In this document: positions 48,996 through 57,166 of the stretch, piece after piece
Layout of the letters: every line of letters begins with the position of its first letter
Position numbering within the stretch: the stretch's first letter is position 1
DNA from: Escherichia coli
Lineage (GTDB): Bacteria; Pseudomonadota; Gammaproteobacteria; Enterobacterales; Enterobacteriaceae
Assembly: GCF_030384885.1 (NCBI RefSeq)
Contig: NZ_CP128613.1
Direction: 5' to 3' (one strand)
DNA: 64,000 nucleotides
Made by a program: the position numbers and the translations under genes
The notes under the pieces: generated by a model
The model's input: the letters and a program-made list of their open reading frames with translations, nothing else
Database searches by the model: none
Told to the model about the DNA's origin: nothing

Positions 48996-50234
48996 TTAAT
49001 CAGGCTTTGGACAACGTTGTTCCTTCCAGCTGGCTACCGCCGCAATCCGCCGTCGGGTCAGCTCCTCGCGAATCTCCACACCTTTAAATCCCGCTTCAAC
49101 GACGGCTTTTGTCGGCACTGACTGTGCCACTTCCCAGGCTTCGCGCAACCAGCGGCCTTGCGGGTAGTCCGCTGATTCAAAACCGGTTCTGCCGCGCACA
49201 TCAGCCTCGCTGGTCAGCGCCAGTTGCTCGACACGCTGCGGTTTACGCCAGGCGTCGATGGAATCAAATAGTTTGACGATGGTTTTTGGGTTCAGCATTG
49301 GGAAGGTGTGGATGAGATCGTGAAACTCAGCCACCAGTCTGGCTAAATCGCGAATTTCATTTGGCACGCGCAGACGCTGGCATAGTTGTTCCACTAACTT
49401 CACACCCGCCGGGCCATGACCATGATGACGCGGCCAAAGTTCTGGCGGCGTCAGTCCTTTACCGAGATCGTGGCATAGCGTTGCGAAACGGACATCGACC
49501 TGCGGACTTAGCATCGCCGCCATTGAGAGCGTCATTAAGGTGTGAATACCGGTGTCGATTTCCGGATGCCACTTGGCAGGGGCCGGAACGCCAAACAGGG
49601 CGTCAATTTCCGGGAATAAAACGCGCAGTGCGCCGCAATCGCGCAGTACCTGGAAGAACACCTGGGGATTGCGGGTAGTGAGGGCGCTTTCCGTCTCTTT
49701 CCACACCCGTTCAGGCGTCAGGTGTTCCAGTTCACCCGCGTGGGTCATCTCGCGCATCAGCGCCAGCGTTTCATCGGCAATACGAAAACCGAGGTGGGCA
49801 TAACGCGCAGCAAAACGCGCCACGCGCAGTACGCGTAACGGATCTTCGCCAAAAGCGGGGGAAACATGGCGCAACAGACGATTTTGCAGATCGCCCAGAC
49901 CGTTGTACGGGTCGATAATCTCGCCGTTATCGTCCTGGGCCAGCGCATTAATGGTCAGATCGCGCCGCTTAAGATCATCTTCCAGCGTGACATCCGGTGC
50001 GGCATAGCAGGTAAAACCGGTGTAACCGGAACCGGATTTCCGTTCGGTACGTGCCAGCGCATACTCTTCATGCGTTTGCGGATGCAGAAAAACAGGAAAA
50101 TCGCGGCCTACCTGCTGGTAGCCCGCGTCGAGCATCTCCTGTGGCGTACTACCGACTACCACCCAATCTCTGTCTTTGACCGGTAGCCCTAACAATGCAT
50201 CCCGAACAGCACCACCGACCAGATAAATCTTCAC
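48996..50234 (-). CDS. cca: tRNA nucleotidyltransferase (CCA-adding enzyme) Cca (412 aa)
   Basis: ORF track 412 aa [66 protein letters not shown]... Confidence 0.9.
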
Positions 50235-50297: not shown

Positions 50298-50918
50298 TTA
50301 GTTCATCCAGCGATCTTTACGTTTGCGCGTTGGGATCAGGTGCGGCAGTACCAGACCGAGCAGCAAGCCAAGCCCCAGCACGCCGCCACCATACATAAAC
50401 CACTGCATGATGATGGTGCGCTGTTTGTCATCCAGCTGTACGCTGGCGGCATCGACCTTTTTCTGCGCGACAATCAGCTCGTTTTTCAGTTTCTGATTTT
50501 CTTCTTTTAACCCGTTGATCACGCTGTCGCTCTGCGCCACTTTTTGCTGCATTTCTGCGGTGCGCTGATTCCAGGTGTTATCGATATTGGTGAGCTTATC
50601 GGTCAGGGTTTTGACCTGATTTTCCAGATCTGGCACACGGGAGCGCAGGCTTGGCTCTGTGCTAAGTTGTTTCAACGGGATCCAGGCGGTACGGCCAGAG
50701 CTGTCTTTCACCTGGGCATAATTGGTGTTGGCATCAGTTTGTAATAAGGTCACTTCCTCGCCGGCGTTAACCGTGCCCACGAGGCGATAATGGTCTCCCG
50801 GACCGCTACGGACCCAGGTATTCAGTTCGTCGGAAACATAGCGCGTTTCTTCAGCGTGTGAGACGGCAGTCGCGCTAAGTGCGAGTAAAGTTAATCCGAT
50901 CAGGCGTAATTTTGGCAT
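50298..50918 (-). CDS. ygiM: SH3-domain membrane protein YgiM (206 aa)
   Basis: ORF track 206 aa MPKLRLIGLTLLALSATAVSHAEETRYVSDELNTWVRSGPGDHYRLVGTVNAGEEV...; signal peptide, SH3b, coiled coil, C-terminal TM. Confidence 0.85.
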   Translation of the reverse strand: MPKLRLIGLTLLALSATAVSHAEETRYVSDELNTWVRSGPGDHYRLVGTVNAGEEVTLLQTDANTNYAQVKDSSGRTAWIPLKQLSTEPSLRSRVPDLENQVKTLTDKLTNIDNTWNQRTAEMQQKVAQSDSVINGLKEENQKLKNELIVAQKKVDAASVQLDDKQRTIIMQWFMYGGGVLGLGLLLGLVLPHLIPTRKRKDRWMN

Positions 50919-51260
50919 CAGGCTGTCGTTATTGTCATGGAAAGTGGAACGATAGTAGTGGCATCAGTGTCGCTACGCAAAGCATTCGACATCAATCGGA
51001 ATCCTCTGTGTCAGGTCTTGCCACTGCTTCAAACTTTTACGCCCGTCAAATTGCCCGTTGCATGGCAATTTGGCGCAAAATACTATCTACTGACAAAAAA
51101 GATCGCATTAAGTTCGCCGTTCATCGTCACTTATGTGACATAACCGATAAGTAAAGGCTTTGACATCCTCCCCCACCTTCGCGCAAAGCGACTCAGGAGG
51201 GGGATTCCCTTGTCAGGGTAGCAATACGTTGCCGCATTGCCCGGTTCCTCGCTCGACGGC

Positions 51261-52466
51261 TTACGCCGCCTTACGGGCGCGTCCTTTACGGACTGACGGC
51301 AATATTTGTCCTGCCGCCATGACTTCAAAACCTGCTGTTAATATATTTCGAGCGCCGTTTACATCGGCGTTTGCCGTATAGCCGCACGCGGTACAGATAA
51401 AGCTCGCCTGCGCCCTGCGGTTAATTTTCGATGTATGCCCACAACATGCGCATTTCTGACTGGTGTACGCCGGATTAATCGCCAGCACATCACCGCCGCG
51501 CCATGCCTGCTTATATTCGAGCTGGCGGCGCATTTCTGCCCAGCCCTGATCCAGTATCGCTCGGTTAAGACCTGATTTTGCCGCGACGTTGCGCCCCGGC
51601 TGGTCTACCGTACCCGCTGCTGATTTTGACATGTTCGAAACCTTTAAATCCTCAATGACTATCATCGCGTGGTTTTTGCTGATCGTCGTCGTGGTTTTAT
51701 GAAGGTAATCGCGGCGGATGTTTGCGATATGAGAGTGGAAACGGGAAATCTTCGCTTTCTGCTTTTTCCAGTTGGCGGAGAATTTAACCTTCCGGGCCAG
51801 ATGGCGCTGTAAGCGAGCCAGCTTATCCTGATTTTTTTTAAAGCTGTTTACCGGTTCAAAGATCGTGCCGTCTGAAAGTGTTGCCAGCTTCGTTATACCT
51901 GCATCCAGGCCTATTGCGCTGGTCGATGCGTGAATCGGATCGGTAACAGCTAATTCGACCTGAAAAGACACATACCAGTGTCCGGCATGCTGGCTGATGG
52001 TGCAATTTTTAATGACGCCTTCAATCTTCCGGGACTGACGAAATTTAACCCAGCCCAGTCCTGACGGGAGTTTCACACGGCCATAATCCAGCCCACAATA
52101 TTTGCTGAAATTGACGAACCGGATAGAGTCGCAGCCTTTGGTTTTCTTTTTGAAAACGGGCTTTTCAGCCGTCAGGGATTTATCAAAACAGCGATCCCAT
52201 GCGCTCCGCAGGTCTTTCAGTTTCTGCTGGAGGTTGTCAGTGTAACCCTCAGCAAGAAAGGCCAGCTCAGGGAGTTTTTTCCAGCCCGTAAGTCGTTTAT
52301 TCAGGTCGAAAGCTGACGGAATTTTTCCGCCCGCGTCATGAATGCTCAGTGTTTCATTCAGTGCATAGTTCCAGACAAAGCGAGCGCAACCGCACAACTG
52401 ACGCAACCTTTGCGCCTGCTGGTCAGTGGGGTAGAGCCTGTATTTATATGCTTTCTGGATTAACAT
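51261..52466 (-). CDS. tnpB: TnpB (IS200/IS605 OrfB; RuvC-like RNA-guided endonuclease, 401 aa)
   Basis: ORF track 401 aa MLIQKAYKYRLYPTDQQAQRLRQLCGCARFVWNYALN...; RuvC motifs (IGLDAGI, VIEDLKV, NADVNGARNI) and CxxC...CxxC zinc finger (CACCGHTSKINRRAQASFICTACGY). Confidence 0.85.
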   Translation of the reverse strand: MLIQKAYKYRLYPTDQQAQRLRQLCGCARFVWNYALNETLSIHDAGGKIPSAFDLNKRLTGWKKLPELAFLAEGYTDNLQQKLKDLRSAWDRCFDKSLTAEKPVFKKKTKGCDSIRFVNFSKYCGLDYGRVKLPSGLGWVKFRQSRKIEGVIKNCTISQHAGHWYVSFQVELAVTDPIHASTSAIGLDAGITKLATLSDGTIFEPVNSFKKNQDKLARLQRHLARKVKFSANWKKQKAKISRFHSHIANIRRDYLHKTTTTISKNHAMIVIEDLKVSNMSKSAAGTVDQPGRNVAAKSGLNRAILDQGWAEMRRQLEYKQAWRGGDVLAINPAYTSQKCACCGHTSKINRRAQASFICTACGYTANADVNGARNILTAGFEVMAAGQILPSVRKGRARKAA

Positions 52467-52532
52467 TTTGCATTCAGTATGTGGTTATTTAGAATGTACA
52501 ATATATCCACATTTTTTTGGGAGGATCAATAC

Positions 52533-52931
52533 GTGTGCGAAATCAATCGTTCACGCTATTCAGCTTACCTGTTGCATGTTCACGTTGTTTTTATGACAAA
52601 ATACCGCCGTCCAGTTTTTGGTGAATTGCATCATGCAAACATGCGTCAGTATGTAGCGGAGGTATGCGCGGACTTTGGCGCCGAGTTAAAGGAATGTGAC
52701 GGCGAGGCAGATCATGTTCACATGCTGATTGAATACCCACCGTTGGTGCAACTCACAAAGCTGGTAAACAGCCTTAAGTCCGTTACCAGTAGGCGGCTGC
52801 GGAATGATTTTATTGATTTGCGCGCCGCGTATTCAAAGCCCGTACTCTGGTCACGCTCTTATTTCATCGGTTCATGTGGTGGAGCACCGCTGGAAGTTGT
52901 GAAAAAGTATATTCAGAATCAGCGTGGCTGA
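52533..52931 (+). CDS. tnpA: TnpA, IS200-type Y1 HUH transposase (about 132 aa from GTG; ORF-track ATG at 52479 gives 150 aa)
   Basis: HUH motif ADHVHMLIEY and catalytic Tyr region LWSRSYFIGSCGG; strong GGGAGGA Shine-Dalgarno 7 nt before in-frame GTG at 52533. Confidence 0.8.
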   Translation: MCEINRSRYSAYLLHVHVVFMTKYRRPVFGELHHANMRQYVAEVCADFGAELKECDGEADHVHMLIEYPPLVQLTKLVNSLKSVTSRRLRNDFIDLRAAYSKPVLWSRSYFIGSCGGAPLEVVKKYIQNQRG

Positions 52932-53001
52932 TAAACTGCGGGCTTAACAGCCCAAATTCCCCTCCCGCCTACGTTGGGGGGGAGTACCCAGTGGAGGAAG
53001 G

Positions 53002-54303
53002 ATGGCTCAGGAAATCGAATTAAAGTTTATTGTTAATCACAGTGCCGTTGAGGCGTTGCGTGACCATCTCAATACGCTGGGCGGCGAGCACCATGACCCC
53101 GTGCAGTTGCTGAATATTTACTACGAAACGCCGGATAACTGGTTGCGTGAACACGATATGGGCTTACGTATTCGTGGCGAAAACGGCCGCTATGAGATGA
53201 CCATGAAAGTCGCTGGAAGAGTGACTGGCGGTTTACACCAGCGCCCGGAATATAACGTGGCGTTGAGCGAACCGACGCTCGACCTGGCGCAGTTACCGAC
53301 GGAAGTCTGGCCGAACGGCGAATTGCCTGCCGATCTCGCTTCCCGCGTACAACCGCTGTTCAGCACCGATTTTTATCGCGAAAAGTGGCTGGTGGAACTC
53401 GATGGCAGCCGAATTGAAATCGCTCTCGATCAGGGCGAGGTGAAGGCGGGCGAATTTGCTGAGCCTATCTGCGAGCTGGAACTGGAGCTGCTTAGCGGCG
53501 ACACGCGCGCGGTGCTGAAACTGGCGAACCAACTGGTATCGCAAACCGGATTACGCCAGGGCAGCCTGAGCAAAGCGGCGCGTGGCTATCATCTGGCGCA
53601 GGGCAATCCCGCGCGTGAAATCAAACCCACCACCATTTTGCATGTTGCGGCAAAAGCTGATGTGGAACAGGGGCTGGAAGCGGCGCTCGAGCTGGCGTTA
53701 GCGCAATGGCAGTATCATGAAGAACTCTGGGTCCGCGGCAACGATGCGGCGAAAGAGCAAGTGCTGGCTGCCATTGGCCTGGTCCGTCATACGCTGATGC
53801 TGTTCGGTGGCATTGTGCCGCGTAAAGCGAGCACTCACTTACGTGACCTGCTGACTCAATGCGAAGCGACCATCGCATCTGCGGTATCTGCCGTGACGGC
53901 GGTCTACTCTACCGAAACGGCGATGGCGAAGCTGGCGTTGACCGAATGGCTGGTAAGCAAAGCCTGGCAGCCGTTTTTAGATGCCAAAGCGCAGGGCAAA
54001 ATCAGCGATTCCTTCAAACGCTTTGCCGATATCCATCTTTCCCGCCATGCCGCTGAACTGAAAAGCGTTTTCTGCCAGCCGTTGGGCGATCGCTACCGTG
54101 ACCAGCTGCCACGCCTGACGCGTGACATTGACTCAATATTGTTGCTGGCGGGTTACTACGATCCTCTTGTCGCGCAAGCCTGGCTGGAGAACTGGCAGGG
54201 ACTGCGTCATGCCATTGCGACCGGGCAACGCATTGAAATTGAACATTTCCGTAATGAGGCAAACAATCAGGAACCGTTCTGGTTGCACAGCGGAAAACGT
54301 TAA
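53002..54303 (+). CDS. ygiF: Inorganic triphosphatase YgiF (CYTH domain, 433 aa)
   Basis: ORF track 433 aa [45 protein letters not shown]...; GGAGGAAGG Shine-Dalgarno. Confidence 0.9.
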
Positions 54304-54325
54304 TCAGCCAAGGATAAAATCGCTT

Positions 54326-57166
54326 ATGAAGCCGCTCTCTTCACCGTTACAGCAGTACTGGCAGACCGTTGTTGAGCGGCTGCCAGCGCCTTTAGCCGAG
54401 GAATCACTTAGCGCACAGGCGAAGTTAGTACTTACTTTTAGTGATTTTGTGCAGGACAGCGTAATTGCGCATCCAGAGTGGCTGACGGAACTGGAAAGCC
54501 AGCCGCCGCAGGCCGACGAATGGCAGCATTACGCTGCATGGTTGCAGAAGGCGCTCAGTGATGTAAGCGACGAAGCAGGGTTAATGCGCGAGCTGCGTCT
54601 GTTCCGGCGGCGCATTATGGTGCGCATTGCCTGGGCGCAAACGCTGGCACTGGTTACTGAAGAGAGCATATTGCAGCAGCTCAGCCATCTGGCGGAGACA
54701 TTGATTGTCGCCGCGCGTGACTGGCTGTATGAGGCCTGCTGTCGCGAGTGGGGAACGCCGTGCAATGCGCAGGGTGAAGCGCAACCGCTGCTGATTTTAG
54801 GCATGGGTAAACTGGGCGGCGGGGAGCTGAATTTTTCCTCAGATATCGATCTGATTTTTGTCTGGCCGGAACATGGTTGCACGCAGGGCGGACGCAGGGA
54901 ACTGGATAACGCTCAGTTCTTTACCCGCATGGGTCAGCGGCTGATTAAAGTGCTGGATCAACCAACGCAGGATGGTTTTGTTTATCGCGTGGATATGCGA
55001 CTGCGTCCGTTTGGCGAAAGTGGCCCGCTGGTGCTGAGCTTTGCGGCACTGGAAGACTATTACCAGGAGCAGGGGCGCGACTGGGAGCGATACGCCATGG
55101 TCAAGGCGCGGATTATGGGCGATAGCGACGGCGTCTATGCTAACGAGTTGCGTGCGATGCTGCGCCCGTTTGTTTTCCGCCGTTACATCGATTTCAGCGT
55201 CATCCAGTCGCTGCGCAACATGAAAGGGATGATTGCCCGTGAAGTACGTCGTCGTGGTTTGACCGATAACATCAAACTTGGCGCGGGTGGCATTCGCGAA
55301 ATTGAATTTATCGTTCAGGTGTTCCAGCTCATTCGCGGTGGGCGCGAGCCGTCGCTGCAATCCCGCTCTTTACTACCCACTCTCAGCACCATTGCCGAGC
55401 TGCATCTGCTTTCTGAAAACGATGCCGAACAATTGCGAGTGGCGTATCTCTTCCTGCGGCGTCTGGAAAATCTGCTGCAAAGCATTAACGACGAACAAAC
55501 TCAGACGCTTCCTTCTGATGAGCTTAACCGTGCGCGGCTGGCGTGGGCGATGGACTTTGCTGACTGGCCGCAACTGACCGGGGCGCTGACCGTACATATG
55601 ACCAATGTGCGCCGGGTGTTTAATGAATTGATTGGCGACGACGAAAGCGAAACTCAGGAAGAGTCGCTGTCGGAACAGTGGCGTGAGCTGTGGCAGGATG
55701 CGTTGCAGGAAGATGACACTACGCCAGTGCTGGCGCATCTTAGCGAAGATGATCGCAAACAGGTGCTGACGCTGATTGCTGATTTCCGCAAAGAGCTGGA
55801 TAAGCGCACTATTGGGCCGCGAGGACGTCAGGTGCTCGACCATCTGATGCCGCATCTGCTAAGTGATGTCTGTGCGCGTGAAGACGCTGCTGTCACGTTG
55901 TCGCGCATTACCGCCTTGCTGGTGGGGATTGTCACCCGTACGACCTATCTTGAACTGCTTAGTGAATTCCCTGCGGCGCTTAAACATTTGATTTCGCTGT
56001 GCGCCGCATCGCCGATGATTGCCAGCCAACTGGCGCGTTATCCGTTATTACTGGATGAACTGCTCGATCCAAACACTCTCTACCAGCCGACGGCGACCGA
56101 TGCTTACCGTGATGAGTTGCGCCAGTATTTGCTGCGCGTGCCGGAAGATGACGAAGAACAACAGCTTGAGGCGCTGCGTCAGTTTAAACAGGCGCAACTG
56201 TTACGTATTGCGGCAGCGGATATTGCGGGTACGCTGCCGGTAATGAAAGTGAGCGATCACTTAACCTGGCTGGCAGAAGCCATGATAGATGCTGTCGTAC
56301 AACAGGCATGGGTTCAAATGGTTGCCCGCTACGGTAAGCCAAATCACCTGAACGAACGCGAAGGGCGTGGTTTTGCGGTGGTCGGCTACGGCAAGCTGGG
56401 CGGCTGGGAGTTAGGCTACAGTTCCGATCTTGACCTGATCTTCCTCCATGATTGCCCAATGGATGCGATGACTGACGGCGAGCGGGAAATCGACGGGCGA
56501 CAGTTTTATCTGCGTCTGGCGCAACGCATTATGCATCTGTTCAGTACGCGAACCTCTTCCGGCATTTTGTATGAAGTGGATGCTCGACTGCGTCCGTCCG
56601 GGGCGGCGGGAATGCTGGTCACCTCTGCAGAAGCGTTTTCCGATTATCAGAAAAACGAGGCCTGGACGTGGGAACATCAGGCGCTGGTGCGTGCGCGTGT
56701 AGTGTACGGCGATCCGCAGCTCACCGCGCACTTTGACGCGGTGCGTCGCGAGATTATGACGCTGCCGCGTGAAGGTAAAACTCTGCAAACGGAAGTGCGG
56801 GAAATGCGCGAGAAAATGCGCGCTCATCTCGGCAATAAACATCGCGATCGCTTTGATATCAAAGCCGATGAAGGCGGAATTACCGATATCGAATTTATTA
56901 CCCAATATCTGGTGTTGCGCTACGCTCATGAAAAACCGAAGTTAACGCGCTGGTCAGACAACGTGCGTATTCTGGAGCTGCTGGCGCAAAACGACATTAT
57001 GGAAGAGCAGGAAGCGATGGTGCTGACCCGTGCTTACACTACGCTGCGCGATGAACTTCATCATCTGGCATTACAGGAATTGCCGGGCCATGTGTCGGAG
57101 GATTGCTTCACCGCAGAGCGTGATCTGGTGCGGGCAAGCTGGCAGAAGTGGCTGGTGGAAGAATGA
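54326..57166 (+). CDS. glnE: Glutamine synthetase adenylyltransferase GlnE (946 aa)
   Basis: ORF 54122..57166; start at [28 protein letters not shown] (ATG 54326) gives 946 aa; two nucleotidyltransferase domains. Confidence 0.95.

Follow-up and report, generated by a model that had tools for sequence, protein, structure and literature searches.

A complete 1842-bp element of the IS200/IS605 family (51160..53001, minus strand) parts ygiF from its native upstream region in the Escherichia coli window analysed here, which comprises 64,000 nucleotides of contig NZ_CP128613.1 (RefSeq assembly GCF_030384885.1) and to which all coordinates refer. Comparison of empty and filled sites shows the element inserted, without target-site duplication, exactly between GGCC and the ygiF start codon or, read on its own top strand, just 3' of ...GCCAT. 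By the same alignment, the native promoter, 5' UTR and weak Shine-Dalgarno sequence of ygiF are shown to lie 1842 bp upstream, with the IS tip GGAGGAAGG and the ATG making up the new initiation region; an insertion at position -1 exchanges the ribosome-binding site as well as the promoter. An earlier note on this DNA had proposed displacement of the native promoter, which the alignment bears out for the full 241-bp upstream region, but had overlooked the exchange of the ribosome-binding site. Insertion, exchange of expression signals, transcription of ygiF-glnE as the distal part of a tnpA transcript and retention aided by TnpB together form what we consider the best joint explanation of the locus, and a somewhat probable one.

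Insertion site

In the ancestral arrangement, ygiM is divergent from ygiF. The minus strand of the window carries cca (48996-50234; ORF list, RefSeq annotation and sequence) and ygiM, which encodes an SH3-domain protein (50298..50918; ORF list, Pfam SH3_3 and the RefSeq annotation of strain 2013C-4282, to which window positions 50800-53200 are 100% identical). The native ygiM-ygiF intergenic region of 241 bp (50919..51159) follows, colinear with empty sites up to ...GTAAAGGCC and parted from ygiF by the IS. Within the IS are tnpB (51261..52466, minus strand, 401 aa; Pfam and alignment with PDB 8H1J/8EXA), a predicted divergent promoter region for tnpA and tnpB (52467..52529; consensus and PWM scans) and tnpA, encoding a Y1 HUH transposase (52479..52931, plus strand, with TGA at 52929-52931; Pfam Y1_Tnp and alignment with ISHp608 TnpA, 2A6M). 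Downstream lie ygiF (53002..54303, plus strand), an intact gene for a CYTH/CHAD inorganic triphosphatase of 433 aa with Pfam matches to both CYTH and CHAD, and glnE (54326..57166, plus strand), encoding glutamine synthetase adenylyltransferase (Pfam GlnE, annotation and sequence). Translation of glnE starts 22 nt past the ygiF stop codon, the two genes are co-directional and scans found neither terminator nor promoter in the gap between them, the layout expected of an operon. E. coli K-12 has the same gene order, with cca-ygiM divergent from ygiF-glnE, the same 22-nt gap and likewise intact ORFs; in K-12-like strains, however, ygiF follows 241 bp of intergenic DNA, whereas here it follows 1842 bp of IS ending exactly at the start codon.

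The boundaries were read by aligning the window to five genomes with an empty site and to seven more with a filled one. With a slash marking the junction, the five empty sites read ...GATAAGTAAAGGCC/ATGGCTCAG, i.e. ...GTAAAGGCC/ATGGCT, and the eight filled sites read ...GTAAAGGCC/TTGACATCC...(IS)...GTGGAGGAAGG/ATGGCTCAG, giving the junctions GGCC/TTGACATCC and GTGGAGGAAGG/ATGGCT. Between empty GGCC/ATG and filled GGCC/IS/ATG not one base is duplicated, and the IS has no inverted repeat at its ends, TTGACATCC... and ...GGAGGAAGG. The top strand of the IS is the minus strand of the window, so that its right end (RE) lies at 51160 and its left end (LE) at 53001. Nine further IS-bearing or empty loci compared at their flanks had the same boundaries. 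The ORF list and the sequence confirmed the coordinates given in the earlier note for the end of tnpA (52931), the ygiF ATG (53002) and the 70-bp gap between them (52932..53001, plus strand), and the whole of that gap is IS left end. The same note had put the IS end within about 60 bp of the ATG, which was right as to an IS end being there and too cautious as to the distance: with the boundary at 53001, it is 0 bp.

An in-frame extension of ygiF into the IS was considered and ruled out, the ORF beginning at 53002 with the N-terminus MAQEIELKF. This N-terminus carries the ExExK motif of CYTH enzymes, and the start of ygiF therefore cannot lie elsewhere. At 51159, the base flanking the RE, the window has T in place of the C found in all 12 other genomes read at the junction; strain 2013C-4282 also has T.

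The element and its relatives

The family of the element is catalogued and the element itself is already annotated in public genomes, RefSeq labelling it 'IS200/IS605-like element ISEc41 family'. Membership in IS200/IS605 fits the lack of a duplication, the non-inverted ends, the subterminal hairpins and the Y1 TnpA. The tnpA product matches Pfam PF01797 (Y1_Tnp) at 1.4e-39 and is closest to ISHp608 TnpA (2A6M; 1.5e-20), with the HUH motif HVHML and the catalytic Tyr in VKKYIQNQ aligned. The tnpB product matches Pfam OrfB_IS605, Cas12f1-like_TNB and HTH_OrfB, and aligns over residues 2-379 with ISDra2 TnpB (PDB 8H1J/8EXA; E = 7e-49), including the zinc-finger region and, through GLDAG, IEDL and NADVNGA, the RuvC Asp-Glu-Asp residues. 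Both TnpA and TnpB are apparently intact. The start annotated for tnpA, ATG 52479, precedes the predicted -10 box. Given the position of the predicted tnpA promoter, a transcript would begin downstream of this ATG, and GTG 52533 is the more likely start, giving a TnpA of 132 aa; it is preceded by GGAGGA (52520-52525) at a 7-nt spacing, with an anti-Shine-Dalgarno duplex of -10.2 kcal/mol.

At the RE (51160..51204, minus strand), which on the top strand finishes in ...GGATGTCAA, a subterminal hairpin at 51166-51204 has a DNA fold of -15.3 kcal/mol (z = -2.8 to -3.0 against shuffles); the terminal TTGACATCC sequence is conserved in two plasmid relatives, and a change in the stem is compensated in a relative. 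The LE consists of a small hairpin (52940-52953), a subterminal hairpin (52956-52985) and an 18-nt tip, GTACCCAGTGGAGGAAGG (52984-53001). The GC-rich sequence that the earlier note quoted as a hairpin typical of an IS end is 52959-52984. It does belong to an IS end, as shown by the empty-site comparison, by a homologous left end in the plasmid-borne relative L008 and by the matching RE hairpin. The fold itself is no proof of this: as RNA, the sequence folds into an imperfect hairpin at about -18.5 kcal/mol, and dinucleotide shuffles do as well (z = 0.05-0.10 for RNA, -0.7 to -1.1 for DNA), so that position and homology, and not folding, identify the end. Both the RE and LE hairpins are conserved in L008 with compensated changes. 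The G-run of the LE hairpin (52976-52982) varies, with seven G in the window and six in CFT073, which gives IS lengths of 1842 and 1841 bp; in strain MS1494 the copy measures 1840 bp and its tnpB is frameshifted.

The plasmid relatives (L008 2501-3450 and L009 2350-3640) are about 78-79% identical to the ygiF-site element and are carried by large E. coli plasmids, where Klebsiella-type gene sets are their neighbours. One relative has an internal deletion and adjoins a type IV (Csf) CRISPR array, and its LE flank shares GCCAT with the ygiF site. On the top strand, GCCAT stands directly 5' of the LE both in the ygiF-site element and in L008, two junctions in all, with the L008 boundary tentative; the shared motif hints at a target or TAM of the element.

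With IS605/ISHp608 of Helicobacter pylori the element shares a Y1 HUH transposase accompanied by TnpB, the absence of both terminal inverted repeats and target duplication, and subterminal hairpins at both ends; the divergent tnpA and tnpB are as in IS605, and a right end finishing in TCAA is as in IS608. It differs from IS605/ISHp608 in its target, apparently ...(G)CCAT from the two junctions and not TTAC, and in an LE tip that happens to read as a Shine-Dalgarno sequence on the opposite strand. It differs further in its distribution, the ygiF-site element being single-copy at one site in 5426 E. coli genomes. The ygiF case changes nothing in the known workings of IS200/IS605 elements.

Distribution and remnant

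The IS lies at the ygiF ATG in 146 out of 5426 complete E. coli genomes, and with the same query nearly all others give an 'empty' match of 559 bp. The IS is covered to at least 80% in 148 genomes, with the LE/ygiF junction present in 146. Carriers include the ST73 strains CFT073, Nissle 1917 and ATCC 25922, and also 'clone D'; a second, separate group of human, bovine and other isolates includes the window. In the Nissle 1917 record NZ_CP058217.1 the IS spans 694948-696788, followed by ygiF at 696789-698090. At the same site, ten complete genomes have a 63-bp remnant made up of the first 45 nt of the RE and the 18-nt LE tip joined at a GGGGGA microhomology; in strain RM14723, for example, the remnant (L004 1501-1563) corresponds to window 51160-51204 plus 52984-53001. 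In the remnant genomes GGAGGAAGG still adjoins the ygiF ATG, and the native promoter is no more than 63 bp farther from the gene than at empty sites. ygiF is intact in all eight filled genomes and in the remnant genome examined.

The window holds a single IS copy, and the 5426 genomes show no sign of mobility in the form of extra copies or sites, all 146 full LE junctions and the ten remnants being at the ygiF ATG. A search for the LE tip in about 100,000 species-representative genomes gave only two hits, both in unrelated MAGs, where an 18-mer would be expected about nine times by chance in 298 Gb. With the tip thus absent elsewhere, the element is single-copy and single-site.

Translation initiation

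The native Shine-Dalgarno sequence of ygiF is AAAGG (51153-51157), 2 nt from the ATG at empty sites, with an anti-Shine-Dalgarno duplex of -3.5 kcal/mol. At filled sites, the tip GTACCCAGTGGAGGAAGG sets GGAGG 4 nt before the ygiF ATG, with a predicted pairing to the 16S 3' end of -9.3 kcal/mol; this IS-derived Shine-Dalgarno sequence is the last 9 nt of the tip (52993-53001, GGAGGAAGG) and is unpaired in the predicted mRNA fold. The motif is not conserved in the left-end tip of L008, GAGACAAAAG, so that it either arose by chance in this element or was acquired later as an adaptation.

Transcription of ygiF and glnE

Promoters were sought with a consensus scan and a PWM scan, whose matches mark candidates and are not evidence of function. 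Between ygiM and ygiF, the only strong plus-strand candidates were at 51319, 52467 and 51058. The best native candidate for ygiF by PWM is TTGCAT-17-TACTAT (51058-51086, plus strand; score 9.2). A candidate for tnpA, TTTGCA-17-TAGAAT (52467-52495, plus strand; score 11.1), is the second-best plus-strand PWM site in the whole interval, and it overlaps a candidate for tnpB, TTGATC-18-TATATT (52529-52500, minus strand). Neither scan gave a sigma-70-like plus-strand site in 52503-53001, which takes in the tnpA coding sequence and the 70-bp gap, nor did scans give any promoter- or terminator-like site in 53002-54400 (ygiF and the ygiF-glnE gap) or any terminator-like site between tnpA and ygiF. The LE hairpin was considered as an intrinsic terminator and rejected, as it has no U-tract and the terminator scan was empty between tnpA and ygiF.

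The earlier note had left open whether ygiF is served by an IS-borne promoter or by read-through from tnpA. With no promoter-like site in the gap or in the tnpA coding sequence and no terminator-like site between tnpA and ygiF, read-through is favoured over a promoter at the IS end, and we infer it to be the best-supported route to ygiF. A tnpA-ygiF-glnE transcript would start from the predicted tnpA promoter at about 52502, cross the LE hairpin, which lacks a U-tract, and then use the IS Shine-Dalgarno sequence for ygiF. Counting against this explanation, GGAGG stands only 4 nt from the ATG, a short spacing, and IS200-type tnpA promoters are generally weak. A need for the tnpA promoter is also put in question by the ten remnant genomes, which lack it and have ygiF intact; the locus thus tolerates, or works with, the native promoter combined with the IS Shine-Dalgarno sequence.

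These remnant genomes, in which the native promoter must serve ygiF, bring up the possibility that the displaced native promoter (candidate 51058-51086) still drives ygiF-glnE through the entire 1.84-kb IS in full carriers as well. Carriers keep the native intergenic region whole and almost unchanged, and the plus-strand path through the IS holds no strong terminator, just a weak 5-bp stem at 51408-51420. Such a transcript, however, would run untranslated for 1.2 kb antisense to tnpB, a stretch in which Rho could readily terminate it, and would meet tnpB and omega-RNA transcription head-on, and the native candidate scores below the tnpA promoter (9.2 vs 11.1); we regard transcription by this route as unlikely. 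We assign a similarly low probability to the view that ygiF is poorly or not expressed in carriers and that glnE is transcribed mainly from its own promoter in the 3' part of ygiF, which would make the insertion nearly neutral for nitrogen regulation. In K-12, SELEX and ChIP work maps the binding of RNA polymerase and RutR to the 3' part of ygiF, ahead of glnE: a minor-sigma holoenzyme gives a genomic SELEX peak about 240 bp upstream of glnE, and RutR has a site at -373.5; both positions fall within ygiF (PMC5493296, PMC2475637). Transcription of glnE may therefore not depend wholly on the ygiF promoter. Against a separate glnE promoter, scans gave no sigma-70-like promoter in 53002-54400 and the 22-nt ygiF-glnE gap has no terminator; the cited RutR study, moreover, reported no RutR-dependent transcription at the ygiF target. 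Poor expression of ygiF sits badly with a gene that is intact and whose differences are mostly synonymous, though most of that divergence predates the IS.

A promoter within the LE itself (52932-53001), directed outward into ygiF, would be one form of the IS-borne promoter that the earlier note suggested, and IS ends are generally known to supply outward or hybrid promoters in some cases. Here we hold it to be highly improbable: neither scan found a plus-strand site in the LE, and the best pair found by hand, TTAACA/TACGTT, has a 20-bp spacer. A hybrid promoter combining an IS -35 with a flanking -10 would start transcription inside the coding sequence, since the IS reaches right up to the ATG.

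An IS standing between a gene and its expression signals is a well-known phenomenon, of which the ygiF case is a clean and widespread example. As in classical IS activation (IS1/IS5 at bgl; the outward promoters of IS2, IS3 and IS10), the IS lies between the gene and its promoter, and expression hangs on IS-borne signals or on read-through; unlike in those cases, no outward promoter is predicted at the ygiF-side IS end, and the ribosome-binding site has been replaced too. If the tnpA promoter does drive ygiF-glnE, then the widely used strains CFT073, Nissle 1917 and ATCC 25922 would express glutamine synthetase adenylyltransferase and the YgiF triphosphatase under IS control, and their ygiF translation initiation region would also differ from that of K-12, which is relevant when regulatory knowledge is transferred from K-12 or Nissle is engineered. 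The coupling of nitrogen regulation to IS expression that the earlier note envisaged is speculation. Our literature search on ygiF transcription start sites, ISEc41 and a link between ygiF and an IS found no paper, and none on an effect of the IS on ygiF or glnE.

Divergence and retention

Between the window and CFT073, the IS differs at 15 of 1842 positions (0.8%), ygiM at 15 of 621 (2.4%) and ygiF at 57 of 1302 (4.4%, with seven amino-acid changes). Among carriers generally, the IS diverges by 0.2-0.8% and the adjacent ygiF by 2.5-4.5%; strains EC42405 and E400634 have one difference in 1400 bp of left flank, four in the IS and 56 in ygiF. The ygiF genes of CFT073 and of NC101, a B2 strain with an empty site, differ by only 7 nt. 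As the IS is far less diverged than ygiF, and as the CFT073 ygiF is close to that of NC101, the IS appears younger than the flanking ygiF haplotypes. Either recombination, possibly with help from TnpB cutting empty sites, moved the IS between backgrounds, or the DNA on its sides was replaced. The high ygiF diversity among carriers need not stem from the IS, ygiF being polymorphic across the whole species (95-99% identity).

A possible means of retaining the IS is suggested by the architecture of characterised TnpB systems, by which a presumed omega-RNA scaffold would be made up of the tnpB 3' end and the RE (51160..51400, minus strand; extent estimated). Over 51120-51270 the identity to L008 is 86%, compared with about 79% for the element overall. 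A scan of 50800-53200 against Rfam at E <= 1 gave no match, whether to an omega-RNA or to an IS200-type RNA family. As its guide, the RNA would use the flank next to the RE, GGCCTTTACTTATCGG... (minus strand, descending from 51159); by analogy with characterised systems, this guide would match the empty site and so favour retention of the IS at the locus. The C>T change at 51159 would be the first base of this presumed guide. Like the ISDra2 TnpB-omega RNA system, the element has the RuvC Asp/Glu/Asp residues, the zinc-finger region and a conserved tnpB 3' end-RE segment, as expected of an omega-RNA scaffold, together with a presumed guide that would consist of RE-flanking DNA and therefore match the empty site; unlike it, the ygiF-site element has no Rfam omega-RNA match, and TTGAT is the TAM of ISDra2.

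It would go further to suppose that, in ST73 and in an unrelated non-B2 group alike, ygiF-glnE forms the distal part of a transposase operon, is translated from an IS ribosome-binding site and belongs to an allele spread or kept by TnpB/omega-RNA cleavage; this scenario as a whole strikes us as quite improbable. The three natural allelic states (empty, full IS and 63-bp remnant) offer a ready-made experiment on IS200/IS605 insertion at -1; with them one could also ask whether a single-copy IS is maintained in natural populations by TnpB homing.

The ygiF allele of the window is itself unusual: a match of at least 99% is found only in 2013C-4282, the next best of 5425 genomes reaching 97.7%, and the differences are mostly synonymous.
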